Below are positions 2,638 through 31,449 of a stretch of 64,000 bases of DNA, piece after piece. The notes beneath the pieces were generated by a model that saw nothing but the letters and a program-made list of their open reading frames with translations, had not been told where the DNA came from and searched no databases. Every line of letters starts with the position of its first letter. The first letter of the stretch is position 1. This DNA comes from Thermoanaerobaculia bacterium (GTDB taxonomy: Bacteria > Acidobacteriota > Thermoanaerobaculia > Multivoradales > JAGPDF01): NCBI GenBank assembly GCA_048500095.1, contig JASNYQ010000003.1, positions 77,510 through 141,509 of the forward strand, written 5' to 3'. Made by a program: the position numbers and the translations under genes.

Positions 2638-3330
2638 TCAGTCGCGGCGGCCGCCGAGCAGGCCGGCGCGGAAGAGGAAGTAGAGCAGCGTGAGCAGGGT
2701 CGAGATCGCGGCCGCGACGTAGGTGAGGGCGGCGGCGTTGAGCACCCGGTCCATCCCCTCCCGCTCCTGCGGCATCACGATCCCCTGGGCGACCGCCAGC
2801 TGCTTGGCGCGGGCCGAGGCGTCGAACTCCACCGGCAGGGTGACGATCTGGAAGAGGAGCACGGCCGAGAAGAGCACGGCGCCGAAGAGGACCATGTTCA
2901 CCGAGGAGAGGAAGATCCCGAAGACCATCACCAGGTAGCCGAGCGTCGAGCCGATGTTGGCGGTCGGCACCAGCAGCGAGCGCAGCGCCAGCGGCCCGTA
3001 CTTCGTGGCGTGCTGGATGGCGTGGCCGGCCTCGTGGCAGGCGACGCCGACGGCGGCGATCGAGGGCACGCCGTAGACCTGCTCGGAGAGCGCCAGCGTC
3101 TTGGTCATCGGGTTGTAGTGGTCGGTCAGCATCCCCCGGTGGGCGACCACCTTCACGTCCCGGATGCCGGCGCTCGCCAGCAGGCGCTCGGCCGCCTCGG
3201 CGCCGGTCAGGCCGGTGGCCACGCGCACCTTGGAGTACTTGTTGAAGGCGCTCTTGGTGCGGAAGCTCGCCCAGAGCGAGAGCAGCAGGGCCGGGGCGAG
3301 GAAGACGAAGTAGATCGGGTCGAACATCAT
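2638..3330 (-). CDS. YugP-type neutral zinc metallopeptidase (Zn_peptidase_2 family membrane protein)
   Basis: Real start taken at MMFDPIYF (ATGATG at 3330-3325). HEAGHAIQH zinc motif and hydrophobic N- and C-terminal helices. The 285-aa upstream extension of track ORF 2638..4188 is R/P/A-rich and was rejected. Confidence 0.85.
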   Translation of the reverse strand: MMFDPIYFVFLAPALLLSLWASFRTKSAFNKYSKVRVATGLTGAEAAERLLASAGIRDVKVVAHRGMLTDHYNPMTKTLALSEQVYGVPSIAAVGVACHEAGHAIQHATKYGPLALRSLLVPTANIGSTLGYLVMVFGIFLSSVNMVLFGAVLFSAVLLFQIVTLPVEFDASARAKQLAVAQGIVMPQEREGMDRVLNAAALTYVAAAISTLLTLLYFLFRAGLLGGRRD

Positions 3331-3494
3331 GGCGTCGGGTACCTCCGAGTCACCCTGGGGAACGGGGCCGGGGGAGCGGATATTCCGCGCCGCCGGCCGG
3401 CGCCGGGCGGGTCCTTCCGGGACCCCTCCCTCGCCGCATTCTACGTGGCCCGCCGCGGGGCGGATCGCGGGGGCGCGCGGCGCCTGCCGCCCCC

Positions 3495-4661
3495 TCAGGC
3501 GAGGGCGAAGCGCGCGGCGAGGCCGTCGGCCACCGCCAGGCCCCGCGGCGTCGGCCGCAGCCGGCCGCCGGCGAGCTCCGCCAGGCCGTCGGCCGCCAGC
3601 TGGGCGAGGAGCGCCCGGTTGGCGGCGGCGAGATCGAGGCCGTAGCGCTCCCGGAACCGCGCGAGGTCGATCCCCTCGGCGGTGCGCAGGCCGAGGAGCA
3701 CCGTCTCCAGCCGCAGCGCGGCGAGGTCGAGCGTCTCCTCCCCGGCCAGCGGGCGCTCCCCGGCCGCCACCTGGGCCGTCCAGGGGCGGATCTTCCGCTC
3801 GTTCCACCAGCGCCGCGCCCCGCGCTCGTCCCAGGCGAACGAGTGCGCCCCCAGGCCGATCCCGAGGTACGGCGTGTGGTTCCAGTACTTGCGGTTGTGC
3901 CGGGAGCGGTGCTCGGGTCGGCGGGCGAAGTTGGAGACCTCGTAGGCGGGAAAGCCAAGCAAAGACAAGACTTTCTGGGTAAGGGAGAAGAGGCGGGCCT
4001 GGGCCGGTTCGGGGGCCTCGGCGAGCTCGCCGCGCGCTGCCCGGTATCCGAAGGGGGTGCGCTCGTGGATCGTGAGCTGGTAGCAGGAGAGGTGGTGGGG
4101 GGCGAGCGCGACGGCGGTCTCCAGGTTCCGCCGCCACGCTTCCTCGCTCTGGCCGGGCAGGCCGTAGATCAGGTCGAGCGAGACCCAAGGGAACCCGGCG
4201 GCCAGGGCGGTGCGCACGGAGGAGGCTCCCTGGTCCGGGTCATGTCCCCTACCCAGAAAAGCGAGGTCGGCCGCGTCGAAGGACTGGACCCCGAGCGAGA
4301 GGGCCGCGATGCCGAGATCCCGCCACTCGATGCAGGCCTCCGGTGTGACGTGCTCGGGGTTCGCCTCCAGGGTGATCCAGGCGTCGGGGCGGGCGCCGAG
4401 CAGGTCGCGCGCGCCTTCCAGCAGCCGTCCGATCTCCTGCGGCGGGGCGAGGGAGGGGGTGCCGCCGCCGAGGTAGACGGTGTCGAAGGCGGCGCCGGCG
4501 AAACTCCCCTCGGCGCGCGCCAGGCGCATCTCGGCGAGCAGCAGGTCGACGTGGGCGGCGAGCTGCGCCGGGCGGCCGGGCAGGACCGCGAAGTCGCAGT
4601 AGGGGCAGATCCGGGCGCAGTAGGGGAGGTGGAGGTAGAGCCCGGGGGCGGCGATCGCTAC
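3495..4661 (-). CDS. hemW: Radical SAM heme chaperone HemW (HemN-like oxygen-independent coproporphyrinogen oxidase family)
   Basis: LYLHLPYCARICPYCDF radical-SAM CxxxCxxC motif, YLGGGTPS, and a HemN_C-like tail. Classic position directly after lepA. The start is uncertain: there is no ATG/GTG/TTG between 4661 and 4799, and the nearest in-frame GTG is at 4802-4800, inside lepA. Confidence 0.85.
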   Translation of the reverse strand, partial: VAIAAPGLYLHLPYCARICPYCDFAVLPGRPAQLAAHVDLLLAEMRLARAEGSFAGAAFDTVYLGGGTPSLAPPQEIGRLLEGARDLLGARPDAWITLEANPEHVTPEACIEWRDLGIAALSLGVQSFDAADLAFLGRGHDPDQGASSVRTALAAGFPWVSLDLIYGLPGQSEEAWRRNLETAVALAPHHLSCYQLTIHERTPFGYRAARGELAEAPEPAQARLFSLTQKVLSLLGFPAYEVSNFARRPEHRSRHNRKYWNHTPYLGIGLGAHSFAWDERGARRWWNERKIRPWTAQVAAGERPLAGEETLDLAALRLETVLLGLRTAEGIDLARFRERYGLDLAAANRALLAQLAADGLAELAGGRLRPTPRGLAVADGLAARFALA

Positions 4662-6496
4662 GCCTCCTCCTCGTCGGAGCGCAGCACGGCGACGAACGCC
4701 TCCTGCGGGATCTCGACCGCGCCGACGATCTTCATCCGCTTCTTGCCCTCCTTCTGCTTCTCGAGCAGCTTGCGCTTGCGGCTGATGTCGCCGCCGTAGC
4801 ACTTGGCGGTGACGTCCTTGCGGTAGGCGTTGATCGTGGTGCGGGCGATGATCTGGCCGCCGATCGCCCCCTGCACCGCGATCTTGAACTGCTGGCGCGG
4901 GATCGTCTTGGCCAGCCGCTCGCAGTAGCGCAGCGCCCGCGGCCGCGCGAACTCCCGGTGCACGAGCTGGGAGAGCGCGTCCACCTTCTCGCCGTTGACC
5001 AGGATGTCGACTTTCACCAGGTCCCCCGGCCGGTAGTCGACGAGCTCGTAGTCGAACGAGCCGTACCCCTGGGTGATCGACTTCAGGCGGTCGTAGAAGT
5101 CGAAGAGCACCTCGGCCAGCGGCAGCTCGCTCGTCATCTCGATCCGCCCGGCGGCGACGTAGTTGAACGTCGGCTGGCTGCCGCGCCGCTCGCGGCAGAG
5201 CTCCATCACCGTGCCGAGGTAGCGCTCGGGCATCCAGAGGGAGGCCCGGATGTACGGCTCGTGGACCTGCTTGATCGCCGACGGGTCGGGGTAGTAGCTG
5301 GGGTTGTCGACCTCGATCTCGCGGCCCTCCTCGAGCTCGACCCGGTAGCGGACCGAGGGGGCGGTGAGGATGAGCGAGAGGCCGTACTCGCGCTCGAGCC
5401 GCTCCTGCACCACGTCGAGGTGGAGGAGGCCGAGGAAGCCGCAGCGGAAGCCGAAGCCGAGCGCGGCCGAGGAGTCCTTCTCGTAGATCAGCGCCGCGTC
5501 GTTGAGCTTCAGCTTCTCGAGCGCCTTGGTCAGCTCCTCGTAGTCGTCGGTGGCCATCGGGTAGATCGAGGAGAAGACCACCGGCTTGGCCTCCCGGTAG
5601 CCGGGGACCGGCCCGGCGGCGGGGCGCGCCGACTCGGTCAGGGTGTCGCCGATGGCCAGACCGGCGAGGCTCTTGATGCCGGCGATGACGTAGCCGACCT
5701 CGCCCGCCACGAGCTCGTCGGAGGGCACCCGCTTCAGGCGCAGCCGGCCCACCTCCTCGACCCGGTGCTCGGCGTCCGAGTGCATCAGGCGCACCGTCAG
5801 CCCCGGGCGCAGCCGCCCGGCCATCACCCGCACGAGCAGGACCGCGCCGCGGTACGGGTCGTACTGGGCGTCGAAGAGGAGCGCCTGGAGGGGCGCCTCC
5901 GGGTCGCCCTGCGGGGCGGGCAGGTGGGCGACGATCGCCTCGAGCAGCTCGTCGACCCCGGTGCCGAGCTTGGCCGAGACCTGCACCGAGGCGAACGGGT
6001 CGAGGCCGAGGTCGCGGTCGATCTCCTCCATGGCGCGCTCGACGTCGGCCGACGGGAGGTCGATCTTGTTGATCACCGGCAGCACCTCGAGGCCGTACTC
6101 GACCGCGAGGAAGAGGTTGGCGACGGTCTGCGCCTCCACCCCCTGCGAGGCGTCGACCACCAGGAGCGCCCCCTCGGCGGCCATCAGCGAGCGGCGCACC
6201 TCGTGGGAGAAGTCGACGTGCCCCGGGGTGTCGATGAGGTTGAGCTCGAAGCTGCGCCCGTCGCGCGCCGTGTAGGGGAGGCTGATGGTGTTCGACTTGA
6301 TGGTGATGCCGCGCTCGCGCTCCAGCTCCATGGTGTCGAGCAGCTGGTCGCGGAACTCCCGCGCCTCGACCCCGCCGCAGCGCTGGATCAGGCGGTCGGC
6401 GAGCGTCGACTTGCCGTGGTCGATGTGGGCGATGATGCAGAAGTTGCGGATCTGTTCCACGGTCGTAGGCGCCCCGCCCGGCGGGGCCGGGCGCAT
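4658..6496 (-). CDS. lepA: Translation elongation factor 4 (LepA)
   Basis: 612 aa. [22 protein letters not shown]1 motif, [13 protein letters not shown], and a conserved LepA C-terminal domain ([48 protein letters not shown]). Confidence 0.97.
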
Positions 6497-12427: not shown

Positions 12428-12544
12428 GGTCGATCCTCGTCGGGAACCGGACGGGGCAGGCCGCCCGGGACCTGTGAGGTTATCAGCCCGCACCCGGACC
12501 GCGCCCGGAACCGGCCCGCCGGCCGACCGCGGGGCGCGAGACCG

Positions 12545-12846
12545 CCAGGCCAGGTCCCTCCCCTCCAAAGGCATGGAGGCCGCCAGCGCTCCCCCCGCCG
12601 GTCTCCGCCAGCTCGACCCGCTCCCCCACGAGCCCCGCCGCCGGCCTCGCCAAGCCGGCCTCCAGCCACACCCTTCGACACCGCTTCGCCACCCACCTGC
12701 TCGAGCCGAGCGACGACCTCCGCGCTGTCCAGGAGCTGCGCGGTCACCGCGACCTCGCGACCACCATGATCCACACCCACACCCTGAATCGCGGGGAGCG
12801 CGCCGTTCGCAGCCCGACCGGCGACCTCGGAGCACCGCCAGACTAG
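12545..12846 (+). pseudogene. Remnant of an integron-integrase-type (IntI-like) tyrosine recombinase, C-terminal ~70-100 codons only
   Basis: Own translation of the frame ending at TAG 12844-12846 gives [64 protein letters not shown]. This matches box II plus the NRG..V.SP tail typical of IntI proteins. The catalytic Tyr position reads His (cac). There is no start codon, upstream similarity (LPSKG.., RQLDP..) is in another frame, and the N-terminal two thirds are missing. The 5' limit is approximate. Confidence 0.6.
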
Positions 12847-12978
12847 ACGGCAGACCCCGTCGTGTTTGCCGCCGCCCGGCGGCTCGTGTACCATCGCCCA
12901 AGCTTCTGGAGATAAATGACTTCGGTGCCACGAGCCGCCAGCCACCGCGCCAGTTTCGACGGCCCTTTCTGCCGTCTA
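12844..12978. repeat. Nested long-range inverted repeat immediately after the integrase remnant
   Basis: Outer arms tagacggcaga (12844-12854) / tctgccgtcta (12968-12978) are 11/11 complementary. Next come ccgtcg (12857-12862) / cgacgg (12957-12962). The inner arms ggcggctcgtg (12878-12888) / cacgagccgcc (12929-12939) are 11/11 complementary, around an AT-richer 40-nt loop. Confidence 0.5.
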
Positions 12979-13043
12979 ACATCGCCCAAAGCCGTCGGCC
13001 GGTGTGATCGAATTACAAGTTGGGGCGACCCGAGGGAAGAACG

Positions 13044-13970
13044 ATGACGCGAGACTGGGAGAACGCTTTTTCCTTTTGGGCGCAGTCACCCAGCAACTCG
13101 GAGCAAGAGCGCACTGAGCGGGTTATCCGAGCCATCCGCACCGCCGTCAGCAACAGCCCCAAGTTGCAGGCGAGAAAGACTTTGGTCTTTGTGCAGGGCT
13201 CATTTCGTAACCGCGTCAATGTTCGTCGGGAGAGCGACGTCGATGTCGGTGTGATGCTCTACGAGTGCTTCCTCGCTCAGTATCCGAGCGGGAAGGCAGA
13301 CGCCGATTTTGGCAACTTCGACGCTAACTACCCGTTCTCTCAGTTCAAGGACGAACTTGAGGGGGCGCTCGTCGCGCACTTCGGTCGCGCGGCGGTGAAA
13401 CGCAGCAACAAGGCATTCGATATCAAGGCCGCACAAGCGCAGGTTGAAGCCGATGTCGTGCCACTGTTCGAGTTCAGGCAGTATTGGGAGAATGGGAGTT
13501 ACCGTGCCGGCGTAGCACTGATCCCAGACAACAGTAGCCGGCGTATCGTGAACTACCCTGAACGCCTCGTTGACTACTGGCCGCACACGCCTCTTCACTA
13601 CGAAAACGGTGTTTCTAAGAATGCCGTGACCCAACGGCGCTTCAAAGGCATGGTGCGCATCCTGAAGAAGCTGCGGATCGAACTGGCGGACGCAGGAAAC
13701 ACCCACGCTGCAAGCGTTCCTGGCTACCTGGCTGAGTGCCTGGTTTGGAACGCTCCAGACTGGTGCTTCGGGCACGCCACATGGGAGGAGCGCGTCCAGT
13801 CGGTACTGTGTTTCCTCTGGCAGAACACGAGGGAGCCGTCCCTTTGCACGGGGTGGTGCGAGGTCGATGCAATCAAGTACCTATTCCATGGCTCGCAGCC
13901 GTGGACGCGCGACCAGGCGCACGCCTTCGTCAACGAGGCATGGGACTTTGTCGGGGTGAAGCCCGTATGA
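13044..13970 (+). CDS. CBASS cyclic oligonucleotide synthase (CD-NTase / SMODS nucleotidyltransferase)
   Basis: 308 aa from ATG 13044, with GAGGGAAG 5 nt upstream. Pol-beta-type NTase signature G52-S53 (VFVQGSFRNR), D65-x-D67 (ESDVDVGV) and a third Asp in VEADVVPLF (D137). Helical C-terminal lobe. ATGA overlap with the next gene. Lower GC than the flanks. Confidence 0.85.
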   Translation: MTRDWENAFSFWAQSPSNSEQERTERVIRAIRTAVSNSPKLQARKTLVFVQGSFRNRVNVRRESDVDVGVMLYECFLAQYPSGKADADFGNFDANYPFSQFKDELEGALVAHFGRAAVKRSNKAFDIKAAQAQVEADVVPLFEFRQYWENGSYRAGVALIPDNSSRRIVNYPERLVDYWPHTPLHYENGVSKNAVTQRRFKGMVRILKKLRIELADAGNTHAASVPGYLAECLVWNAPDWCFGHATWEERVQSVLCFLWQNTREPSLCTGWCEVDAIKYLFHGSQPWTRDQAHAFVNEAWDFVGVKPV

Positions 13971-14626
13971 AGCTCGAGCGTCTCCAAATCACCGCCTTTG
14001 TCATCCTTGCGGCGGCCATCTGGCTGGCAGTACTCCTGTTCCAGGGTACGCCGGTCGAGTGGGTGCACGCCCAGCCATTCGGTATTGTGGTGAGCGCCTT
14101 GGTCGGTGTCGGCGTGCTTCTGGAGTTCGTGCTGTGGCGGCAGGCGTGGCTACACGGTTGGTTTATTGACCGCCCCGACCTTCGTGGTACGTGGCGCGTC
14201 GAGCTGCAGTCGAGCTACGGGCGGCCTGAGACCAACGAGCGTGTGCCGATGATCGTCTGCTACATGGGCGTGAAGCAGACCCTTTCGAAGCTCCAGATGC
14301 ATTTGATGACTCCCGAATCAGAGTCTTGGCTTGTCGCTGACCACGTTCGGCCGTCCCCCAGCGGCCACGGCTTCCAAGTGATTGGGGTCTATTCCAATGA
14401 ACCTAACGTTCATCTCCGACACGAGCGGATCAGCGAGATGCACCAAGGGGCCATCATCGTCGAAACTCATGGGCCTAGCCTCCGGCCAACGACGCTAACA
14501 GCGAAGTACTGGACTGACCGCCAGACCACAGGAACAATGGAGTTCACCGTCCGCATCAACGACCTGTGCACGCGATTCGAAGACGCTCAAACCTCACTCT
14601 CGGCGCACGAAGGCAAGAATGCCTGA
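13967..14626 (+). CDS. CBASS effector, 2-TM + beta-strand-rich C-terminal domain (Cap15 / S-2TMbeta-like)
   Basis: 219 aa from ATG 13967. Two N-terminal TM helices (ITAFVILAAAIWLAVLLF, FGIVVSALVGVGVLLEFVLW). A beta-rich domain follows, starting LRGTWRVEL and ending AKYWTDRQTTGTMEFTV, as in SMODS-associated 2TM-beta effectors. Confidence 0.75.
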   Translation: MKLERLQITAFVILAAAIWLAVLLFQGTPVEWVHAQPFGIVVSALVGVGVLLEFVLWRQAWLHGWFIDRPDLRGTWRVELQSSYGRPETNERVPMIVCYMGVKQTLSKLQMHLMTPESESWLVADHVRPSPSGHGFQVIGVYSNEPNVHLRHERISEMHQGAIIVETHGPSLRPTTLTAKYWTDRQTTGTMEFTVRINDLCTRFEDAQTSLSAHEGKNA

Positions 14627-14653
14627 CTCGACGGCGTGGGCGCGTCACGTGCG

Positions 14654-14713
14654 TCCTAACAACAGCATGCAGCGGCCGGCGCTCCGCGCCGCCGCTGATG
14701 CTGAGCGTTAGGC
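14654..14713 (+). other. attC-like integron recombination site (cassette boundary)
   Basis: TCCTAAC (R''-like, 14654-14660) and GTTAGGC (R', matches GTTRRRY, 14707-14713). Stem pairs are cctaac/gttagg, cagcat/atgctg and cagcggc/gccgctg, with an unpaired spacer (aa vs agc), one extrahelical G (14670) and a 14-nt apical region. It lies 28 nt after the Cap15-like stop and 13 nt before the next ATG. Confidence 0.6.
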
Positions 14714-14725
14714 GCCAGAGGAACC

Positions 14726-15811
14726 ATGGCCCTTTCACGACCTCTTCTTGAACGACTGATCGCAGCGAAGTACCTCTTAAGGGCGGCGCGCGAAACGGTA
14801 GCCACCCACAGTCCGTACCGCGCAGGACGAGCAGTTCTTCATCTTCAGGACGCTGCCGAGATGCTTCTGCGAGTTGCTGCTGAACACCTTCATGCGCAGG
14901 TTTCGGAGAAGAGCGCCTTCGATCAGCTCGTCGAGGCTGTGGTGAAAGCCGCTCCAGTCCCACTCACGCATCGCACCGCGCTGAATCAACTCAACAAGGC
15001 ACGAGTTGCCTTCAAGCATTTCGGCCTCGAACCAAAGCCAGAGGACGTTGCAAAGGTGCTGGCAGACATGGACAGTTTCTTTCCAGAGACCGTGCAGTCG
15101 ATCCTTGGCGCCGACCTCGCTGAACTCAGTCTTAGGTCGCTGGTCGGCCACAGGCGGACCGAGAACTGGCTTGCAAAGGCAGAGCAAGCCCTCGCCGCAG
15201 GGGACTTCGATGCCTCCATCAATGCCTCGGCGGTCGCATTCGCGGTGATTCGCCATCACTGCGCTGGCACACACGACTTCTCCCGGCTGGATCCCTCTGG
15301 TCGTTTCAGGGAAGGCGAGTTGCGCGCGGCCCTTGAGGCAGTAGAGCAGAAGTTCAAGGCGCTAGAGGCGGACCTTGACCTGTTTGCGCTCGGCGTTGAC
15401 CCCGCCGAGTACAGGCGATTCAGAAGGTACACGCCACGCGCGAGGCTTACGATGGCTGCGACCGTTATTCTCCAGAGGGGAATGAGCGAGACGCCGGTAG
15501 TAGGAGCCGATGAAGCGGCGTTTTGTGCCCGGTTTACGCTAGACGCGGCACTCGCAATGCAGTCAAACATCCTCCCGCCACGCTGGCCGATTCCGCGACC
15601 GGACAAAGCGGTCCGCGTTGTTCGCGAATGCGATCTCGTCGTCTGGCCTGGGGAGGGCGCGGAAGTGATCCGCCAGGTGAGCGTCGGTGAGCAACTGGCG
15701 GCCTTCTCAGGAGGCAGGCAATTGGACGGGCACATACAAGTCGTCGAATCTGGAGACGGCGCGTTCGTCCCGGCAGACGCGGTGGAGGAAGGTGGGTCCG
15801 CTGGCGCCTGA
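14726..15811 (+). CDS. Hypothetical protein; helical N-terminal domain with HEPN-like Rx4H motif, second helical domain, SH3-like C-terminus (no confident family assignment)
   Basis: 361-aa ORF with ATG 13 nt after the attC-like GTTAGGC. LNKARVAFKHFG (R93-x4-H98, nt 15002-15019). The C-terminal ~60 aa are beta-rich (VVRECDLVVWPGEGAEVIRQVSVGEQL...GHIQVVESGDGAFVPADAV). The composition looks coding and is not R/P-rich. Confidence 0.7.
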   Translation: MALSRPLLERLIAAKYLLRAARETVATHSPYRAGRAVLHLQDAAEMLLRVAAEHLHAQVSEKSAFDQLVEAVVKAAPVPLTHRTALNQLNKARVAFKHFGLEPKPEDVAKVLADMDSFFPETVQSILGADLAELSLRSLVGHRRTENWLAKAEQALAAGDFDASINASAVAFAVIRHHCAGTHDFSRLDPSGRFREGELRAALEAVEQKFKALEADLDLFALGVDPAEYRRFRRYTPRARLTMAATVILQRGMSETPVVGADEAAFCARFTLDAALAMQSNILPPRWPIPRPDKAVRVVRECDLVVWPGEGAEVIRQVSVGEQLAAFSGGRQLDGHIQVVESGDGAFVPADAVEEGGSAGA

Positions 15812-15921
15812 CAGCTATCAGGCCCCCTCTTGTCAAGGGGTAGGCGATCCCCAGGGCGGGCGTTGAGCCAGCCGAGCTGGTTGAAGGACTGCCTCCCTAC
15901 CTGATCGTCGCTGACTTCGCT

Positions 15922-16211
15922 TCACGTTCTGGTGCGGCGCTTCTGGCGCATGCCGAGGGCGTGGCCGGGGGCGAAGGCGATGCTCTCGTCCTCGCAGAGA
16001 TCGGCGAGCCAGTACCAGCAGAAGATGCACTCGCAGCCGACGACGAGGCCGTCGCGGAAGGGCGCCGGTGCCTCGAGCACGGCCCCGGGTTGCACGGCAG
16101 ATAGCGATGCAGGACAATCTGACCGGAGCCGTCGAGCAGACAGAGGTAGAGGGCGCGCCCGTGGAGATCGACGCCGCAGGCGAACGCGTGGGACCGGGAA
16201 TGGAATCGCAT
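15922..16211 (-). pseudogene. IS110-family transposase, N-terminal fragment with frameshift (truncated)
   Basis: From ATG 16211 the translation is MRFHSRSHAFACGVDLHGRALYLCLLDGSGQIVLHRYLPCNPGP. After a frameshift near 16080 it continues VLEAPAPFRDGLVVGCECIFCWYWLADLCEDESIAFAPGHALGMRQ, then a stop at 15922-15924. This is the DEDD_Tnp_IS110 N-domain pattern, and the C-terminal catalytic half is absent. Weak degenerate similarity may continue to about 15815. Confidence 0.7.
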
Positions 16212-16304
16212 GCAGTGCCTCCTCTGGCTTGCGTGAGTGCCACCGCGAGAGCTACCGCGTGGGTAGCCCCAGAGGGGGCCTGCATGGGCTTCAAGCCGAT
16301 GAGG

Positions 16305-16351
16305 CCGACCGTCGCTTGCGGCGCCCGCAGCTCATCGGCAGGGCGTTAGGC
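16305..16351 (+). other. Partial/degenerate attC-like site (right half with R' GTTAGGC)
   Basis: GTTAGGC at 16345-16351, 17 nt before the next start codon. L-box-like pair gccgatgag (16305-16313) / ctcatcggc (16331-16339). No matching RYYYAAC partner on the left, where IS110-derived sequence begins. Confidence 0.35.
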
Positions 16352-16367
16352 GGCGTTACGATCGGTT

Positions 16368-16718
16368 GTGGACTTCGCCTACTCCGCAGGGCTGCTGATG
16401 TCTCTGCTTGGTGGTGCTGCCTCATTGGTCTGTCTATTCAGCGCAGCGGTGCTGCGTTCCAGCGCGGTTGCAGCGCGAATGCGCGTGGCGGGCTCAGCGC
16501 TTCTCGCTCTTGGGTTCGTTTCCTGTGTAGTTGCGCTCGTTGTCCACCGTGTCTGGGGTCATGGCGCCCGGAGCCCCGAGCCGATGCACCTCCGGCAGTT
16601 TCTCGGCAGCCATCCCGCTTTCGTCATTGTGGGCTGCTTGCTCCTCGCGGGGTTCCTACTGATTCTCGTCGCGCGTGCGAAGAGCGCCCGGCACGAGCGC
16701 TCTCGAGACGCCGCCTGA
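16368..16718 (+). CDS. Small membrane protein (3 predicted TM helices), hypothetical
   Basis: 116 aa with a GTG start. Hydrophobic segments GLLMSLLGGAASLVCLFSAAVL, SALLALGFVSCVVALVV and AFVIVGCLLLAGFLLILV, then a basic tail. Confidence 0.5.
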   Translation: MDFAYSAGLLMSLLGGAASLVCLFSAAVLRSSAVAARMRVAGSALLALGFVSCVVALVVHRVWGHGARSPEPMHLRQFLGSHPAFVIVGCLLLAGFLLILVARAKSARHERSRDAA

Positions 16719-16935
16719 GAGACCGCGGAGGAACCGGTCAGTGGAGGGACGCGGGGGAGCGCCGGGGGCGACCCGGGCGCGGAGAGCGCGGCCACCGCGA
16801 AAGGGGATTCGCCAGGTCCACCGCAATCGTCGTATCGTGGCCCGCGATTCCTGAAGGAGAAGGCCACTCTCGACCGCTTCGTGGGAAGCCACTTTGCGTC
16901 GACAGCAGGTCGGGTCATTCGAGGAGAGATCGGTC

Positions 16936-17652
16936 ATGACCGTTGGAAACGAATTGCAGCAGGGCATCGCGCAGTCCGTCGCCCGCGCCCGGTGGGTGAC
17001 GATCCTCCTCGCCGGTTGCGTCTCGGGCGCCGCCCTCGGCGTCCTCACGGGTGTCCGTCAACTCGACCTGCTGCATCGTGTTGTGGCTGGCGAGGTCATT
17101 TCGGAGTCCGAAGCGAGCTGGAACGACACGCTCTACGGCGGCATCGGGCTCGTCCAGACGGCCATGTTCGTGGCCTGTAGCGTCCTCTGGCTCGTGTGGC
17201 TCAAGAGAGCCTATGCAAACCTCCTTCTCGTGGGCACCCGCACGGCTCGCTTCTCTCCCGGCTGGGCGGTTGGCTACTGGTTCGTCCCGGTGGTGAACCT
17301 GGTACGTCCCTACCAGGTCATGAAGGACCTTTCCGTGCGAAGTGCGCAACGCAACGAGCACGACGGCATGATGGCGGCGGGGACCACGACGCTCGTGGGC
17401 TTGTGGTGGTTCGCCCACCTGGCATCCGGGATCGCCGGTCGGGTCTTCTTCCGCCAGGCGCTCGGTGCTGACGAAGTGCAGGGGTTCATCGCTTTGACCC
17501 AGGCAGGACTCGTCACCGACGCCGCAACGATCCTCTCTGGTGTGCTCGCGCTGGTCATGATCCGCGGCATCACCCGGAGTCAGAGCGCGTGGCCGAACGA
17601 GGCGAATGCCGCTGCAGTGGTCCCACCATCGATCGAGCCCAGTTCCATCTAG
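16936..17652 (+). CDS. DUF4328 domain-containing membrane protein
   Basis: Start at MTVGNEL (ATG 16936), with GAGGAGAG 7 nt upstream. The motif FSPGWAVGYWFVPVVNLVRPYQVMKDL is typical of DUF4328. Multiple TM segments. Confidence 0.75.
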   Translation: MTVGNELQQGIAQSVARARWVTILLAGCVSGAALGVLTGVRQLDLLHRVVAGEVISESEASWNDTLYGGIGLVQTAMFVACSVLWLVWLKRAYANLLLVGTRTARFSPGWAVGYWFVPVVNLVRPYQVMKDLSVRSAQRNEHDGMMAAGTTTLVGLWWFAHLASGIAGRVFFRQALGADEVQGFIALTQAGLVTDAATILSGVLALVMIRGITRSQSAWPNEANAAAVVPPSIEPSSI

Positions 17653-17656
17653 CTGC

Positions 17657-18100
17657 ATGGTCGGTGCCCCGCATCACGTCGTCGATCGGGTTCTGCCCCC
17701 CGTCCTCGTGCTCCTCCATGCGGGGCTCTTCCTCTGGGCGTCCGTCGGCTTGGTCGAGTGGCTGGTACCCGGCGTGGCGTGGCGACCGGTGAGCAATGCG
17801 CTCTTTCCCCGGTGGCTGCTGCTGCTGCACTGGCTCGCGGTTCTGAACGCCGCGGCCATCTTCCTGGCCGGCTACGTGCGGCGGTGGCCGAGGACCCCTG
17901 TGCTCCTGGTACCGGCGTACGCCTTCATGGCGGGGGTCTGCACCGTCGAGACCTTCTTCTATCTCACCCATCCGCTGCGCTACGTCGCCATGGCGCTCGA
18001 GCTCGCCGCGTACGTGCTGATCCCGCTCGCGCTCTACCGGGTGCCCGGCCTCGCGCGGCGATTCGGGTCGAGACGGGCGATCGAACGGCAGTCGACATGA
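17657..18100 (+). CDS. Hypothetical integral membrane protein (about 4 TM helices)
   Basis: ATG 17657, 4 nt after the DUF4328 stop. Hydrophobic helices VLPPVLVLLHAGLFLWASVGLV, WLLLLHWLAVLNAAAIFLAGYV, VLLVPAYAFMAGVCTV and VAMALELAAYVLIPLALY. Confidence 0.6.
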   Translation: MVGAPHHVVDRVLPPVLVLLHAGLFLWASVGLVEWLVPGVAWRPVSNALFPRWLLLLHWLAVLNAAAIFLAGYVRRWPRTPVLLVPAYAFMAGVCTVETFFYLTHPLRYVAMALELAAYVLIPLALYRVPGLARRFGSRRAIERQST

Positions 18101-18203
18101 TGCCGGACGCCGCGCAGCGCTCGATCGGCAGGCCGGCTGGCGCTGCGACCGCGGCAGGCCTCGAGTGCACGATGCGGCCACGGCACCTCGGAAGGAGAGC
18201 GAC

Positions 18204-18650
18204 ATGGGAACGGCCACGAAGACCCCGGAGCGACTCAGTGTGTTCGGCGATCCGGCGGTGTCGCCGACCGACGACGAGGTCCGCGCCGCTCTCGGGCCGG
18301 CCGTCGCCGCCTGGATGGCGCTGATCGAGCACGTCACCCGCACCTACCCGCCCGCGAGCCACGCCTGGAACTTCGCGGGCGCCAGATACGGCTGGTCGCT
18401 CCGCCTGCGGCAGGCAGAGAGGGTCGTGCTCTACCTCATCCCGCAGCGAGGCCGGTTCCTCGTCGGCATCGTCCTGGGCGCCAGCGCGGTGGCGGCCTCC
18501 CGGGAGGCCGACCTTCCCGCGGATGTGCGGCGCACGATCGCGGAGGCGCCGCGATACAGCGAAGGCACCGGTGTTCGCCTCGCCGTCTCGTCGGAGGACG
18601 AGCTCGCGGCGATCACGGCCCTGGCCGCCCTCAAGATGGCGCGGCGTTGA
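18204..18650 (+). CDS. DUF3788 domain-containing protein
   Basis: ATG 18204 preceded by GGAAGGAGAG. WNFAGARYGWSLRLRQAERVVLYLIPQRGRFLVGIVLG matches my recollection of the DUF3788 pattern. Confidence 0.7.
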   Translation: MGTATKTPERLSVFGDPAVSPTDDEVRAALGPAVAAWMALIEHVTRTYPPASHAWNFAGARYGWSLRLRQAERVVLYLIPQRGRFLVGIVLGASAVAASREADLPADVRRTIAEAPRYSEGTGVRLAVSSEDELAAITALAALKMARR

Positions 18651-18782
18651 CGGGCCTGCGCCGGCCACCCCCGGACGTGCGGGCGGGCGACCCGGGAGGA
18701 CGGAGCGCGAGCCCGGGACCAGAGGTGCCGCGGTGACCTGCCCCCGAGCGGCGGCAGAGAGACCGCAGGAACGCCGGCCGGC

Positions 18783-20878: not shown

Positions 20879-23800
20879 GTGAAAACCCGCCTGCTCGTCC
20901 TGTTCGCCCTGCTCGCTCTGTTGCCGGCGTTCGCTCACGGCCAGTGCGTGAGCATCACCAGCGGAGGGACCCCGTTCTCCGAGAACTTCGACACGCTGGC
21001 GAACACCGGCACCTCGAGCACCACCCCGGCCGGCTGGTACTTCGCCGAGACGGGCACGAACGCGAACACGACTTACACCGCGGGGACCGGCTCGGGTACC
21101 GCCGGGGATACGTACAGCTTCGGGGCGGCAGGGAACTCGGAAAGGGCCTTCGGTGGGCTGCTCAGCGGGACCCTGACGCCGACGATCGGGGCCTGCTTCA
21201 CGAACAATACCGGCGCACCGATCGGCTCGCTAGCCATCGCGTACACCGGCGAGCTGTGGCGCTTGGGCGCGGCCGGTCGTACCGACCGCCTCGACTTCCA
21301 GTACAGCCTCGACGCGACGTCGCTTCTGGCGGTTGCCACCTGGGTCGATGTCGACACCCTCGACTTCACCACCCCGAACACGACCGGTACGGCCGGCGCC
21401 CGCAACGGCAACGATCCCGCCTATCGCACGGCGATCAGCCAGTCGATCGGCTCGCTCGCCATCGCCAACGGAGCGACCTTCTGGATCCGGTGGACGGAGT
21501 TCAATCCCACCGGAGCGGACGACGGGCTGGCGGTCGACGATTTTTCCCTCACCGCCACGCTGGCGGGTGATGCGGCCCCCTCCGTCGACTCCACCGTCCC
21601 CGCCAACGGCGCCACCGGCGTGGCGATCGACGCGAACCTCACGATCACCTTCAGCGAGGCGGTGAACGTCGCGGGGACGTGGTTCACGATCTCCTGCTCG
21701 AGCTCGGGGGCGCATGCGGCGGCGGTCTCCGGCGGGCCGGTCACCTTCGTCCTCGACCCGACGGTCGACTTCGCGAACTCCGAGACCTGCACCGCGACCG
21801 TCGTCGCGGCGCAGGTGACCGACCAGGACGCGAACGATCCGCCGGACAACATGGCGGCGGACTACGTCTGGTCGTTCACCACCCTGAGCCTGGCCTCGAT
21901 CTCGATCGAGAAGTCGACGAACGGCCAGGACGCCGACACGCCGCCGGGGCCGACCATCCCGGTGGGGGCGCCGGTCGTCTGGACCTACGTGGTCACGAAC
22001 ACCGGCGCCGACCAGCTCACCGGCATCACCGTGACCGACGACCAGGGCGTGACCGTCACCTGCCCGGCCACCGCGCTCGCCGCCGGGGAGTCGATGACCT
22101 GCACCGGCAACGGCGTCGCCGGCGCCGGACAGTACGCGAACGTCGGCACCGCCACCGGCACGCCGCCGTCGGGCCCGGCGGTGAGCGACACCGACCCCAG
22201 CCACTACTTCGGGGCGACGTTCGTGATCAACGAGATCCACGCCGACCCGCACTCGACCCAGGGCGACGCCAACGGCGACGGGGTGGTGAGCGCGACCGAC
22301 GACGAGTTCGTGGAGCTGGTCAACGCCACCGCCGGGCCGATCGACATCTCCGGCTGGACGCTCTCCGACGCCGTCGGAGTCCGCCACACCTTCCCGGCCG
22401 GCACGGTGGTGCCGGGCGGCTGCGCGGCGGTGGTCTTCGGCGGCGGGGGCCTCGTCGCCTACTTCGGCGGCAGCGTCGCCCAGGTCGCCTCGAGCGGCAC
22501 GCTCGGCCTGAACAACACCAACGAGACCGTCACCCTGCGCGATGGCGCCTCTGCGATCGTGGCCGCCGCGGCCTACGCCGCCGAGGGGGGCAACGACCAG
22601 TCGATCACCCTGGTGCCGGACGTGACCGGCACCCTCCCCTGGGTGCAGCACACGACCGCCCCCGGCTCGGGCGGCCTGCGCTACTCGCCGGGACGGAGGG
22701 TCGACCGCACCCTCTTCGGCGGCTGCGGCGCGCCGCCGCTCTCCTTCGTGCACGACGTCCAGGGGGCGGGCGCGGTCTCGCCGCTCGCCGGCCTGCCGGT
22801 GCGCGTCGAGGGCGTGGTGACCGGCCTGAAGTCGAACGGCTTCTTCCTCCAGGAGGAGGTGAGCGACTACGACGCCGACCCCGCCACCTCCGAGGGGATC
22901 TACGTCTTCACCAGCTTCGCCCCGCCGGCGGCGGTCGCGGTCGGCAACGTGGTGAGCGTGGTCGGCGTGGTGGCCGAGTACGTACCGTCGGCCGACCCGC
23001 TGCAGCCGCCGCTGACCGAGATCGTCACCCCCGGCATCACCTTCGTCTCCGCCGGCAACCCGCTCCCGACACCGGTCATCCTCCTCACCATCTTCCCCGA
23101 CCCCGCCGGGCCGTTCGACCAGCTCGAGCGGTACGAGGGGATGCGGGTGTCGGTCCCGTCGATGACGGTGGTCGCCCCCACGCGGGGGAACATCTCCGAG
23201 CCGAACGCCACCGCCACCGGCAACGGCATCTTCTCCGGTGTCGTCACCGGCGTGGCGCGGCCGTTCCGCGAGACCGGCATCCAGCAGCCGGACCACGGCC
23301 TCTGGCCGGCGCCACCGACCGTGCCGATGTGGGACAACAACCCGGAGACAATCACCGTGGACAGCGACGCCCTCGGCGGCCCGCAGCTCGACGTGGGCAC
23401 CGGCGCCGTCGTCACCGGCCTCGTCGGCCCGCTCGACTACGGCTTCCGGCGCTACACGCTGCTCCCCGACCCGGGGCTCACGCTGGGGATCACCGGCGGC
23501 CCGGCGCCGGCCGCGGTGACGCCTCCCGGGGCGGGCGAGATCACGGTCGCCACCTACAACGTGCAGCGCTTCTTCGACACCGTCAACGACCCGGCGACCT
23601 CGGATCCGGTGCTCACCCCGGCCGCCTTCGACCTCCGGCTGGCGAAGCTCTCCGACGGGGTGCGCAACTACCTCCGCTTCCCGGACGTCCTCGGGCTGCA
23701 GGAGGTCGAGAACCTGACGACCCTGCAGGCGATCGCGGCGCGGATCAGCGCCGACGCCGTGGGCGCCGGCCAGGGCGACCCGCTCTACGTCGCCTACCTC

Positions 23801-25888
23801 TCGGAGGGCAACGACATCGGCGGCATCGACGTCGGCTTCCTGGTCAAGACGGCGCAGGTCGCGCCGGGGGTGCCCCGCGTCTCCGGCATCGCGGTGACGC
23901 AGGTCGGCCTCAACGGGCCGGGCGCAGAGTGGGACGACCCGGGCGACGGGCTCAACGGCGTGCTCGTGCCGTTCAACGACCGCCCGCCGCTGGTCCTCGT
24001 GGCGACCGTGAACGCGGCCAACGGGGCCACCTTCCCGCTCACCGTGATCGCCAACCACCTGCGCTCGTTCGGCGACGTCGGCGACCCGACGCCACTCACC
24101 CCGCCGGGGGTGGGAACGGCCAGCCAGCGGGCCGAGCGGAAGCGGCTGCTGCAGGCGCAGTACCTCGCGAACCTGGTGCAGACGCGGCAGAGCGCCAACC
24201 CGGCGGAGCGGATCGTGGTGATCGGCGACATGAACGCCTACGAGTTCAGCGACGGCTTCGTCGACTCGCTCGGCACCATCGCTGGCACCCCGGTGCCCGA
24301 CGACCAGACGATCGTCCCGGGCGACGGCACCGACCTCGTGAACCCGGACCTCGTCAACCTGCTCTCGACCGCCCCCGCGGCCGAGCGCTACTCCTACTCC
24401 TTCGACGGCCAGGCGCAGACGATCGACCACGTGCTCGTCAACGCCGTGACCGTGACCGACACCGCGGCCCGCCGCATCGAGCACGCGCGCATCAACGCCG
24501 ATTTCCCGGAGGTGGTGCGCGACGACGCCCCCGACGCGCGGCGGCTCTCCGACCACGACCCGGTGGTCCTCTACCTCGCGCCGCTCGGCTTCGCCACGGC
24601 GGATCTCTCGATCGCCAAGACCGACGCCCCCGACCCGGTGGTCGCGGGCACGAACCTCACCTACACGATCACGGTCGGCAACGCCGGGCCGGATCCGGGG
24701 ACCACCATCACCTGGGCCGACACCCTGCCGACGAACACCACCTTCGTTTCGCTGACTTCGCCCGCCGGCTGGACCTGCACGACGCCCGCGGTCGGCGCCG
24801 CCGGCACCGTCACCTGCGGCGTGCCGGCGCTCGCCGTCGGCTCCGCCGCCTTCACCCTGGTGGTGAACGTGGCGCCGACGGTGGCGACCGGCACGGTGAT
24901 CTCGAACATCGCGGCGATCACCGGCGCGAGCTCGACCGACCCGAATCCCGGCAACAACAGCGCCACCGCCACCACCACGGCGCGGAGCGAGGCGAACTTC
25001 GCGCTGACGAAGGCGGCCTCGCCCGAGCCGGTGACGGTGGGCAACCTCCTCACCTACACCCTCACCGTCGTCAACCCCGGCCCGAGCCACCTGCTGGGCG
25101 CGAGCCTGACCGACCCGCTGCCCGCCGGGCTGGCGCTCCAGTCGGTCAACGCGCCGGCAGGGTGGAGCTGCGCCGGGGCGGTGACCTGCACCAACCCGTC
25201 GGTGCCGGTCGGCGCGCACGTGATCACGATCGCGGCGCTCGTCGACCCGGCGCTCGCGGGCGGCACGGTCCTCACCAACACGGCGCTCCTCGCCGCCGCG
25301 ACGCTCGACCCGGTCCCGGGCGACACGCAGCCGTCCGCGACCTCCACGGTGGTGGCGCCGGTCGCCTTCACCGCCACCAAGTCGGTGGCCGGGAGCTTCG
25401 GGCCGGGCGGGATCGTCACCTACACGATCGCGCTCACCAACGCCGGGCCGGGGAGTCAGCCCGACCTCGCCGGCGACGAGCTGGTGGACGTGCTGCCGGC
25501 CGAGCTCGCGCTGCTCTCGGCGAGCGCGGACAGCGGCACCGCGGTGGCGGATCCGCCGAGCGGGACGGTGACCTGGAACGGCGCGCTCGCGGCCGGCGCC
25601 ACGGTCACGATCACGATCCAGGCCCGGATCGGGCTGCTGATCCCGACCGGGACCGTGATCGCGAACCAGGCGACGTTCTTCTTCGACGGCGACGGCAACG
25701 GCACGCCGGAGGCGTCGGGGGTGAGCGACGACCCGGGCGTGGGCGGCGCGGCGGACCCGACCGAGTTCGAGGTCGGGCAGGAGTCGGTGCTGGAGATCCC
25801 GGCCCTCGGTCCGGCGGGCCTGGCGCTCCTGGCGCTCCTGCTCGCAGCGGCCGCGGCGGTCCTGCTGCGGCGGCGCCGCACCGCCTGA
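20879..25888 (+). CDS. ExeM/NucH-family extracellular nuclease, giant multidomain form with IPTL-CTERM-like sorting tail
   Basis: 1669 aa. Signal peptide MKTRLLVLFALLALLPAFAHG. Lamin-tail domain (FVINEIHADP...DDEFVELVN, ~22220). Endonuclease/exonuclease/phosphatase domain (ITVATYNVQRFFD ~23540 to LSDHDPVVLYL ~24580). Several DUF11-type repeats (LSIAKTDAPDPVVAGTNLTYTITVGNAGPD etc.). C-terminus VLEIPALGPAGLALLALLLAAAAAVLLRRRRTA. Confidence 0.9.
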   Translation: MKTRLLVLFALLALLPAFAHGQCVSITSGGTPFSENFDTLANTGTSSTTPAGWYFAETGTNANTTYTAGTGSGTAGDTYSFGAAGNSERAFGGLLSGTLTPTIGACFTNNTGAPIGSLAIAYTGELWRLGAAGRTDRLDFQYSLDATSLLAVATWVDVDTLDFTTPNTTGTAGARNGNDPAYRTAISQSIGSLAIANGATFWIRWTEFNPTGADDGLAVDDFSLTATLAGDAAPSVDSTVPANGATGVAIDANLTITFSEAVNVAGTWFTISCSSSGAHAAAVSGGPVTFVLDPTVDFANSETCTATVVAAQVTDQDANDPPDNMAADYVWSFTTLSLASISIEKSTNGQDADTPPGPTIPVGAPVVWTYVVTNTGADQLTGITVTDDQGVTVTCPATALAAGESMTCTGNGVAGAGQYANVGTATGTPPSGPAVSDTDPSHYFGATFVINEIHADPHSTQGDANGDGVVSATDDEFVELVNATAGPIDISGWTLSDAVGVRHTFPAGTVVPGGCAAVVFGGGGLVAYFGGSVAQVASSGTLGLNNTNETVTLRDGASAIVAAAAYAAEGGNDQSITLVPDVTGTLPWVQHTTAPGSGGLRYSPGRRVDRTLFGGCGAPPLSFVHDVQGAGAVSPLAGLPVRVEGVVTGLKSNGFFLQEEVSDYDADPATSEGIYVFTSFAPPAAVAVGNVVSVVGVVAEYVPSADPLQPPLTEIVTPGITFVSAGNPLPTPVILLTIFPDPAGPFDQLERYEGMRVSVPSMTVVAPTRGNISEPNATATGNGIFSGVVTGVARPFRETGIQQPDHGLWPAPPTVPMWDNNPETITVDSDALGGPQLDVGTGAVVTGLVGPLDYGFRRYTLLPDPGLTLGITGGPAPAAVTPPGAGEITVATYNVQRFFDTVNDPATSDPVLTPAAFDLRLAKLSDGVRNYLRFPDVLGLQEVENLTTLQAIAARISADAVGAGQGDPLYVAYLSEGNDIGGIDVGFLVKTAQVAPGVPRVSGIAVTQVGLNGPGAEWDDPGDGLNGVLVPFNDRPPLVLVATVNAANGATFPLTVIANHLRSFGDVGDPTPLTPPGVGTASQRAERKRLLQAQYLANLVQTRQSANPAERIVVIGDMNAYEFSDGFVDSLGTIAGTPVPDDQTIVPGDGTDLVNPDLVNLLSTAPAAERYSYSFDGQAQTIDHVLVNAVTVTDTAARRIEHARINADFPEVVRDDAPDARRLSDHDPVVLYLAPLGFATADLSIAKTDAPDPVVAGTNLTYTITVGNAGPDPGTTITWADTLPTNTTFVSLTSPAGWTCTTPAVGAAGTVTCGVPALAVGSAAFTLVVNVAPTVATGTVISNIAAITGASSTDPNPGNNSATATTTARSEANFALTKAASPEPVTVGNLLTYTLTVVNPGPSHLLGASLTDPLPAGLALQSVNAPAGWSCAGAVTCTNPSVPVGAHVITIAALVDPALAGGTVLTNTALLAAATLDPVPGDTQPSATSTVVAPVAFTATKSVAGSFGPGGIVTYTIALTNAGPGSQPDLAGDELVDVLPAELALLSASADSGTAVADPPSGTVTWNGALAAGATVTITIQARIGLLIPTGTVIANQATFFFDGDGNGTPEASGVSDDPGVGGAADPTEFEVGQESVLEIPALGPAGLALLALLLAAAAAVLLRRRRTA

Positions 25889-31228: not shown

Positions 31229-31449
31229 GTGCGGTGGGCTCCCTCGGTTCGGAGGATCGCGACGGACTCCAGAAAGGCGGCGGAATTATCTCACAGCAAA
31301 CCGCGCCGGCGCGGTCCGTTCCGGCCGGCGGCGGGCCCCCCGGAGCTCCTCGGCGATGGTGTAGCATCCGGCGGTTGGCGATCGGACTCGGCGGCGCGCC
31401 GGGCGGGCCCGAGGCCCGAACCGGCGCTGGCTGCGCGCGTGGGGGCGGC

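Follow-up and report, generated by a model that had tools for sequence, protein, structure and literature searches.

The DNA analysed here, referred to as the window, is a stretch of 64,000 nucleotides from a Thermoanaerobaculia bacterium (Acidobacteriota; GenBank assembly GCA_048500095.1, contig JASNYQ010000003.1, positions 77,510 to 141,509). Upstream of manB the window contains a remnant of an integron integrase gene, intI, followed on the same strand by gene cassettes with attC recombination sites. The first cassette carries the two genes of a predicted cyclic oligonucleotide-based anti-phage signalling system (CBASS) and ends in an intact attC. The attC of the second cassette is interrupted by the remnant of an insertion sequence (IS). 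A sequence-only reading had proposed a decayed integron with attC-bounded cassettes at this place. The proposal was borne out by the scores of integrase models, by the intact attC, by the presence of the first cassette on two other contigs (L008 and L012) and by the variable cargo of the locus when compared with a sister genome. The locus is very probably a fossil chromosomal integron of the type in which the integrase gene has the same direction as the cassettes (the 'inverted' type).

As had also been claimed, the GC content drops in the island, to 0.59-0.67 across 13-18 kb as compared to 0.70-0.80 on either side. By part, manB has a GC content of 0.71 and the intI remnant one of 0.72, and the values of the two cassettes are 0.60 (cassette 1) and 0.61 (cassette 2).

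Integrase remnant, CBASS cassette and intact attC

The intI pseudogene remnant (12637..12846, plus strand) consists of the last ~69 codons of the gene, from box II to the NRG..VRSP tail and the stop codon. The sequence-only reading had recognised an IntI-type C-terminus in the translation of 12640-12846 and had noted that the catalytic Tyr codon is cac. Both statements held. The codon at 12772-12774 is cac (His) and of the R-H-R-Y catalytic set only box II is left. TIGR02249, the integron integrase model, was the top NCBIfam model for 12640-12843 with 82.3 bits (profile positions 253-312 of 315). NF011946 gave 61 bits. The XerC, XerD and generic Xer models gave only 58.5-60.5 bits, thus the fragment does not do better on the Xer models and the IntI model is ahead of them by ~22 bits. 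A match of 48 bits to PF00589 was found in Pfam. In a protein search the remnant matched the C-terminal pieces of 97 recombinases with 53-76% identity, and all of these have the ...YTHVLNRG..AVRSP tail. Five of the longer pieces scored 131-170 bits on TIGR02249 versus at most 103 on the Xer models. These results support an assignment of the fragment as the C-terminus of an IntI-type integrase and not of XerC or XerD. Given that the gene is truncated and that the catalytic Tyr has been replaced by His, this copy of the integrase is incapable of recombination. The integrase remnant and the cassettes have the same direction, as the sequence-only reading had stated, and this layout recurs in L012, in L003 and in the contig of P0009.

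Cassette 1 (13020..14707, plus strand) extends from the TT of GTTGGGG (13019-13025) to the G of GTTAGGC (14707). GTTGGGG lies 172 nt past the integrase stop codon and is the left edge of the homology of cassette 1 to other loci. The cassette contains two open reading frames (ORFs) only, with no Cap2/Cap3, HORMA/TRIP13 or other accessory genes. The first ORF (13044..13970, plus strand) encodes a CD-NTase of 308 aa (PADLOC Cyclase PDLC00801, 1.1e-107; PF26305 CD_NTase_C) and the GS...DVD motif is visible in its translation. The second ORF (13967..14626, plus strand), which overlaps the first, encodes a Cap15-type effector of 219 aa with two transmembrane segments and a cyclic-nucleotide receptor domain (PF18153 Cap15_CD_rec, 1.8e-12; PADLOC 2TM effector PDLC00694, 1.3e-57). 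By its gene content, CD-NTase plus Cap15, cassette 1 is a type I CBASS.

The site that closes the cassette, attC1 (14654..14713, plus strand), is intact. It consists, in order, of R'' TCCTAAC, AA, CAGCAT, an extrahelical G, CAGCGG, an apical hairpin, CCGCTG, ATGCTG, AGC and R' GTTAGGC. In comparison with the consensus RYYYAAC/GTTRRRY, R' matches at 7/7 positions and R'' at 6/7, and the spacers are 5 and 6 nt. The DNA fold was -29.7 kcal/mol (z = -5.3) and none of 200 shuffled sequences was equally stable. When the 64 kb were scanned for nnnAAC...GTTnnn hairpins, 7 candidates were obtained, and the combination of YYYAAC/GTTRRR with a compact stable hairpin was found at 14654-14713 only. A second scan used the attC geometry, namely R'' (7 nt), 5 nt, 3 bp, one extrahelical base, 6 bp, a loop, 9 bp, 5-6 nt and R' (7 nt), and was calibrated on external classical attCs, for which the scores were 25.5-29.5 and 8.5-9 of the 9 L-box positions were paired. 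Of the sites in the window, 14654-14713 alone was above the background (at most 25), with a score of 28 and 9/9 L-box pairs on the plus strand. Its score on the minus strand was lower (25.5, with L-box pairs at 6.5/9), and this asymmetry means that the polarity of the site is consistent with the plus-strand ORFs. The extrahelical base shares its column with that of the classical attCs in L008. The heptamer GTTAGGC occurs twice in the window as against 1.8 times expected; since its frequency is at chance it was not taken as evidence alone. The attC that had been claimed at 14654-14713 is thus upheld by the fold, by the geometry score and by its being unique in the 64 kb. If cassette 1 were circular, the letters at its junction would be ...GCTGAGCG|TTGGGGCGACC.

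Homologues of the CD-NTase with 70-94% identity were found in very different lineages, and in two cases the whole cassette was matched. By blastn, window 13010-14712 corresponds to L008 4265-5968 (96.0% identity over 1704 nt) and to L012 223-1924 (82.8%). In L008 the CBASS pair lies within a run of ORFs on the same strand with a classical attC after each ORF (2441-2530, 3320-3388 and 4215-4281), and a hairpin of the window type is found 3' of the pair at 5910-5969. L012 opens in frame with an IntI tail, NRGGLAVRSPLDTPGETP and a stop (NRGGLAVRSPLD... up to the stop), followed by 172 nt, GTTGGGA, the CBASS pair and a hairpin of the attC1 type. A second unit in L012, with AAA_11 and UvrD_C_2 genes, is closed by a hairpin of the attC1 family. 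In an alignment of the three loci, similarity was lost upstream of the GTT at 13019 and a few bases past GTTAG. The occurrence of the same G|TT-bounded unit in different arrays indicates that cassette 1 is a genuine integron cassette. Identity with plasmid-borne cassettes was considered and rejected, the best hit on sequenced plasmids being 48% at the amino acid level.

The non-orthologous second site of L012 matches attC1 at 84%. In the family formed by attC1, the second site of L012, the site of L019 and attC2 of the window (see below), the AA spacer and the position of the extrahelical G are constant. Stem 1 is always paired at 6/6 positions, with compensated changes (CAGCAT/ATGCTG, TGGCAT/ATGCCA and GCCGAT/ATCGGC). 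In L012 and L019 sites of the attC1 type are located 3' of unrelated genes. The geometry, the polarity and the homology to sites that bound unrelated cassettes together support the assignment of 14654-14713 as an attC.

Cassette 2 and the insertion sequence in its attC

Cassette 2 (14708..16345, plus strand) comprises ORF361 together with its own attC, attC2, which is interrupted by the IS. ORF361 (14726..15811, plus strand) has a weakly HEPN-like N-terminus and belongs to a family of 25 proteins. The R'' of attC2, GCCTGAC (15806..15812, plus strand), overlaps its stop codon. The first 20 nt past the crossover point of attC1 (14707-14726) pair at 17 of 20 positions with 15793-15812. Complementarity to the cassette 2 start of at least 15/20 was found at one place in the 64 kb, and 17/20 was reached in 5 of 100,000 random position pairs (P ~5e-5). 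This pairing argues that 15793-15812 is the base of the attC belonging to cassette 2. In L020, L021 and L022 the ORF361 unit follows a different attC.

Directly 3' of this R'' lies the remnant of an IS1111-like element of the IS110 superfamily, 480 bp in length (15813..16292, minus strand). It retains ~95 N-terminal codons of the transposase with one frameshift (15897-16211, minus strand). When the frameshift was bridged, tblastn gave 42-49% identity to IS110 family transposases (E ~1e-26). The remnant has perfect 12-bp subterminal inverted repeats, CAGGCCCCCTCT, located 7 and 10 nt from its ends, and such subterminal repeats are a hallmark of IS1111-type elements. The insertion point is CCTGAC|AAGCCGATGA, and in the sister genome the same point 3' of CCTGAC is occupied in two attCs. 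The transposase, the subterminal repeats and the site-specific insertion all point to a defective member of the IS1111 family.

The remnant is followed by the 3' part of an attC, AA-GCCGATGAG...CTCATCGGC-AGGGC-GTTAGGC (16293..16351, plus strand, with GTTAGGC at 16345-16351). The sequence-only reading had placed a second attC at 16305-16351. The GTTAGGC and the stem GCCGATGAG/CTCATCGGC do exist, but an intact attC at this position was rejected as no R'' is present within range; what is found there is the 3' part only, with the R'' at 15806-15812 on the other side of the IS. The local fold at this second GTTAGGC was not significant (z = -1.3). When metagenomes were scanned with the 24 nt that end in GTTAGG, a single unrelated contig, L019, was obtained. 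This contig contains an intact attC, GTCCAAC-AA-GCCGATGA...CTCATCGGC-AGGGC-GTTAGGC, which is 88.5% identical to window 16292-16352, and the homology of the window to this attC ends where R'' would be. Removal of 15813-16292 in silico joined GCCTGAC to AAGCCGATGAG... and gave a 66-nt site with an attC1-like fold.

Identification of ORF361 as a HEPN RNase was rejected: the Pfam match has E 0.0098 and the Rx4-6H motif is not conserved across the family. The 25 proteins of the family (the homologues are P0219-P0242) have 28 invariant residues, for example H82, R83, D107, H142 and R144. The homologues in L016-L018 adjoin toxin-antitoxin, partition or recombinase genes. No attC sites were found in these three contexts and the integrase of L016 is a generic small recombinase. 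The junction of attC with ORF361 (L021, Logan SRR25580095_9195) was present on contigs from at least 20 sequencing runs, therefore either the Thermoanaerobaculia lineage or the ORF361 cassette is widespread in public metagenomes.

A third, decayed cassette is probable, although its status is uncertain, at 16346..16914 (plus strand). It would consist of ORF116, a membrane protein gene (16368-16718, plus strand) that the sister genome has as well, together with GCCTGAG at 16713-16719, which resembles an R'', and GTCGGGT at 16909, which weakly resembles an R'. The start of this candidate is complementary to the region of the ORF116 stop codon at 10/12 positions (control P = 0.008). A fourth cassette was rejected, there being no complementarity between start and end and the DUF4328 gene, the 147-aa ORF and the DUF3788 gene forming a conserved flank.

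The sister genome and the history of the locus

A protein search with ORF361 led to the same chromosomal locus in a sister, the Thermoanaerobaculia metagenome-assembled genome (MAG) GCA_027493395.1 (L022), contig JAOSKT010000001.1. The left flank, from LepA to manB, is 97.4% identical between the two genomes up to window 12536. The right flank is 95.7% identical over window 16083-18749, which covers the attC 3' part, ORF116, DUF4328, the 147-aa ORF and DUF3788. Because the stretch from DUF4328 to DUF3788 (16936-18650) is conserved in the sister it is flank rather than cassettes, and the cassette part of the island ends by about 16.9 kb and not at 18.65 kb. The earlier claim that all ORFs of the island from 13044 to 18650 are on the plus strand must be amended accordingly. 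It is correct for the intact genes, but the transposase remnant at 15897-16211 is on the minus strand and 16936-18650 is flank.

Between these flanks the sister has first a 115-aa ORF after GTTGGGT and then an IS5-like fragment. These are followed by a pair of genes, for a 322-aa protein and a DUF4325 protein (L022:8495-9759), which is closed by an intact attC with a score of 27.5. Next come the ORF361 unit with one IS copy, copy A, and a SIR2-kinase gene with hits to PD-T4-6-type kinases. Last are a second R'' (ACCTGAC) with a further IS copy, copy B, and the attC 3' part. No CBASS cassette was found at the sister locus. The SIR2-kinase gene encodes a fusion of SIR2 with a protein kinase, 785 aa in length (L022:11565-13922), and is absent from the window; this gene and the pair for the 322-aa and DUF4325 proteins are candidate defence cassettes.

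The possibility that relatives carry the same genes as conserved core synteny was examined and this is not the case. The sister has different cassettes between flanks of 97% identity, and a more distant Acidobacteria MAG, L005, whose manB is 89% identical at the amino acid level, has other cargo. Upstream of manB in L005 (L005:1657-6744) there are a fragment of an HsdM-like methylase, an SNF2-type helicase of 964 aa and an AAA ATPase of 403 aa. This position next to manB is a hotspot at which defence-type cargo recurs.

A three-way alignment of the IS copies showed that the IS of the window follows copy A of the sister on its left and copy B on its right, and is therefore a recombinant of the two copies, which flank the SIR2-kinase unit in the sister. 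The homology of the window to copy A (L020) breaks at 16293, thus independently confirming the IS end at 16292/16293. In the sister the attC 3' part of the window belongs to the attC of the SIR2-kinase unit. The simplest account of this pattern is that recombination between the two copies deleted the SIR2-kinase unit. On this account attC2 of the window would be made up of parts of two attCs that belong to one family.

The history of the locus may then be reconstructed as follows. The cassettes would have been captured by IntI-mediated recombination of attC with attI, using the folded bottom strands, at a time when this genome or a donor of the segment had an active integrase. An IS1111-type element inserted into the attC of cassette 2 directly 3' of its R''. 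Homologous recombination between IS copies would have deleted the SIR2-kinase unit and thereby joined one attC's R'' to the 3' part of a different attC. Today the array would be frozen unless an integrase acts in trans. The cargo is predicted to be still working: when a phage infects, a cyclic oligonucleotide would be produced by the CD-NTase, and this signal would bind to the receptor domain of Cap15 and lead to membrane disruption and abortive infection.

It is a tentative but real possibility that the same object was never functional at this place. The segment from ~12537 to ~14690, with the dead end of intI, the attI-like stretch and the CBASS cassette, would then have been imported from a diverged relative by homologous recombination or some other transfer, and all of the differences from the sister would be due to general recombination and IS activity and not to IntI. 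In the platform region the window and the sister have only ~60% identity as compared to 97% for the flanks, therefore this part of the locus has been exchanged and not simply inherited. One of the differences from the sister is demonstrably an IS by IS deletion. Furthermore, no intact intI was found in the 64-kb window or, in the sister, at a distance of up to 10 kb from the locus, and the sister locus has no clear intI, only a trace, LRH...LLGQRHV, that is faint at most. However, the GC content of the intI remnant is host-like while that of the cassettes is 0.60, which suggests a long residence of the platform, and attC-bounded differences of cassette size between sisters are what integrase activity produces.

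It has also to be considered whether the array is frozen at all, as the cassettes might still be excised and reshuffled in trans by an integrase that is encoded at another place in the genome or is brought in by a visiting element. The full geometry and stable fold of attC1 would permit this, the identical cassette circulates among very different contigs, and arrays without an integrase (CALINs) are a recognised class. Such reshuffling is nevertheless unlikely, given that neither a second integrase nor any other integrase-like sequence was found in the 64-kb window, that attC2 is disrupted by the IS and that attC3 is decayed.

That there is no integron here but a defence island brought in by a tyrosine recombinase of the phage or integrative and conjugative element type, with the hairpin being an operon terminator or an element like the repetitive extragenic palindromes that travels with the CBASS, could appeal to some close homologues of the CBASS pair that are located outside integrons (on a mobilisable element of Vibrio and on the chromosome of a Pseudidiomarina, attC sites not being found) and to the manB-adjacent locus being a general hotspot, but is scarcely credible when the recombinase fragment is IntI-specific by its C-terminal tail, the hairpin has no T-run and was not called by the promoter/terminator scan as a terminator, the R'' and R' boxes are canonically spaced with an extrahelical base, the same hairpin family is found after unrelated genes and in an array of heterogeneous classical attCs, and the homology breaks exactly at GTT.

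The interpretation as a fossil chromosomal integron has several results weighing against it. The intI remnant may have arrived already dead rather than having decayed in place. Upstream of ~12637 there was no convincing similarity to integrases and an apparent extension of the match added no real identity. The additional domain that is specific to IntI, an insertion of ~35 aa that binds the extrahelical bases, is not recognisable upstream of this point and this part of intI is gone. An Rfam scan of 11-20 kb gave no match up to E 10 and was uninformative here. In class 1 attCs the extrahelical base is usually G, whereas the family described here would have C on the bottom strand. The 172 nt that separate the stop codon of the integrase from the first crossover point could be either an attI or a decayed attC. 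A scan of 12430-16400 for sigma-70-like promoters found none, although such a scan may not suit the Acidobacteriota. Lastly, the candidate third cassette has no significant fold and the evidence for it is weak.

Relation to known systems and minor features of the locus

Chromosomal integrons with an inverted integrase are those of the Treponema denticola type. IntIs of the inverted kind make up a sub-clade of the soil/freshwater clade of IntI, and integrons are common enough in Acidobacteria for a taxon-specific attC model to have been made (PMC8352920). The window resembles the inverted-integrase integrons in that intI is directed as the cassettes are and the first crossover point is just downstream of the intI stop codon. 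It differs from them in retaining only ~69 codons of intI, with the Tyr lost, a fragment that is too short for placement in a clade. Decayed integrons with intI truncated or absent are found downstream of ilvD in Xanthomonas (10.1101/2025.06.18.660453). These share with the window a fixed locus beside a housekeeping gene, a truncated or absent intI, an array that varies among close relatives, some defence cassettes and nearby transposases. The window is unlike them in its phylum, its anchor gene manB, its inverted integrase and its much shorter array of 2-3 cassettes.

Defence systems have been described as cassettes of both sedentary and mobile integrons (10.1101/2024.07.02.601686; 10.1101/2024.07.02.601719), including brc135, a two-ORF cassette resembling type I CBASS (10.1101/2024.07.02.601719). 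Cassette 1 is like brc135 in combining a nucleotidyltransferase with a membrane effector, as a compact defence system within a single attC-bounded cassette, and the gene pair has no structural difference from type I CBASS with a Cap15 effector. Unlike the published defence cassettes it is located in a sedentary, dead platform from an environmental member of the Acidobacteriota, and its role in defence is predicted from its genes.

Two members of the IS1111 family, ISKpn4 and ISPst6, target one end of attC sites (PMC11187229, where Tetu & Holmes 2008 and Post & Hall 2009 are cited for the IS1111-attC group). The IS of the window has in common with this group a DEDD-type transposase of the IS110 superfamily, subterminal repeats and a fixed position and orientation at the end of an attC. 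It is unlike the members of the group in being a 480-bp, internally deleted remnant with a transposase that is 42-49% identical to annotated relatives.

The sequence-only reading regarded an integron fossil with defence cargo in such a genome as unusual. This view could not be maintained because each component has already been published, that is integrons in Acidobacteria, intI genes that are inverted or truncated, cassettes with defence systems and the targeting of attC by IS1111 elements. The locus does show how a chromosomal integron dies, with a truncated intI, one intact attC, one attC hit by an IS and, on the account preferred above, one cassette lost by recombination between IS copies. 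It also shows that an entire type I CBASS moves between contigs of very different origin in the form of one integron cassette (83-96% nucleotide identity). This fits with integrons being stores of compact anti-phage systems and extends the picture to Acidobacteriota from environmental metagenomes. No new question is opened, and the value of the locus lies in a defined attC family, a testable cassette and a pointer to a possible integron in the Actinomycetota.

This pointer concerns L012, which is a 37-kb contig (GCA_975374965.1, CDIKIM010000276.1) binned to an Actinomycetota MAG, with the IntI tail and the two attC-bounded cassettes in L012:1-5610. According to the IntegronFinder 2.0 paper, complete integrons have not been found in Actinobacteria. 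Should the bin be right, L012 would hold a genuine integron of the Actinomycetota and would be evidence of direct cassette traffic between Gram-negative and Gram-positive bacteria. The binning of mobile DNA into MAGs is unreliable and the phylum of L012 must be treated with caution. The broader idea that the inverted-integrase lineage trades multi-gene defence cassettes (CBASS-Cap15, AAA_11/UvrD_C_2 and SIR2-kinase) across phyla, including the Actinomycetota, is doubtful.

The putative attI or older attC residue (12847..13018, plus strand) has the same length elsewhere. The spacing from the stop codon to the GTT is exactly 172 nt at three independent loci, in the window (12847-13018), in L012 (L012:59-230) and in L003 (L003:5102-5273). 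A conserved attI was rejected, since the ungapped identity of the three 172-nt gaps is no higher than for random sequence and the protein tails are not of equal length, and the identical spacing may be a coincidence. Within this stretch there is a 17-nt direct repeat, 12885-12901 and 12973-12989 (CGTGTACCATCGCCCAA and CGTCTAACATCGCCCAA, 15/17 identical), whose second copy contains a perfect RYYYAAC, GTCTAAC at 12974-12980. The two copies could be binding repeats for an integrase or could be left over from an older attC; in such GC-rich sequence, however, repeats this long are not rare.

Two further features lie to the right of the locus. At 31416-31522, in a region of overlapping long ORFs, there is a 107-nt inverted repeat with a perfect stem base of 11 bp (CCGAACCGGCG...CGCCGGTTCGG), which was rejected as an attC as it has the wrong consensus. 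At 20879-25888 there is a gene for a secreted repeat protein of 1669 aa, with a C-terminal hydrophobic and Arg-rich anchor that resembles a sorting signal of the PEP-CTERM type.

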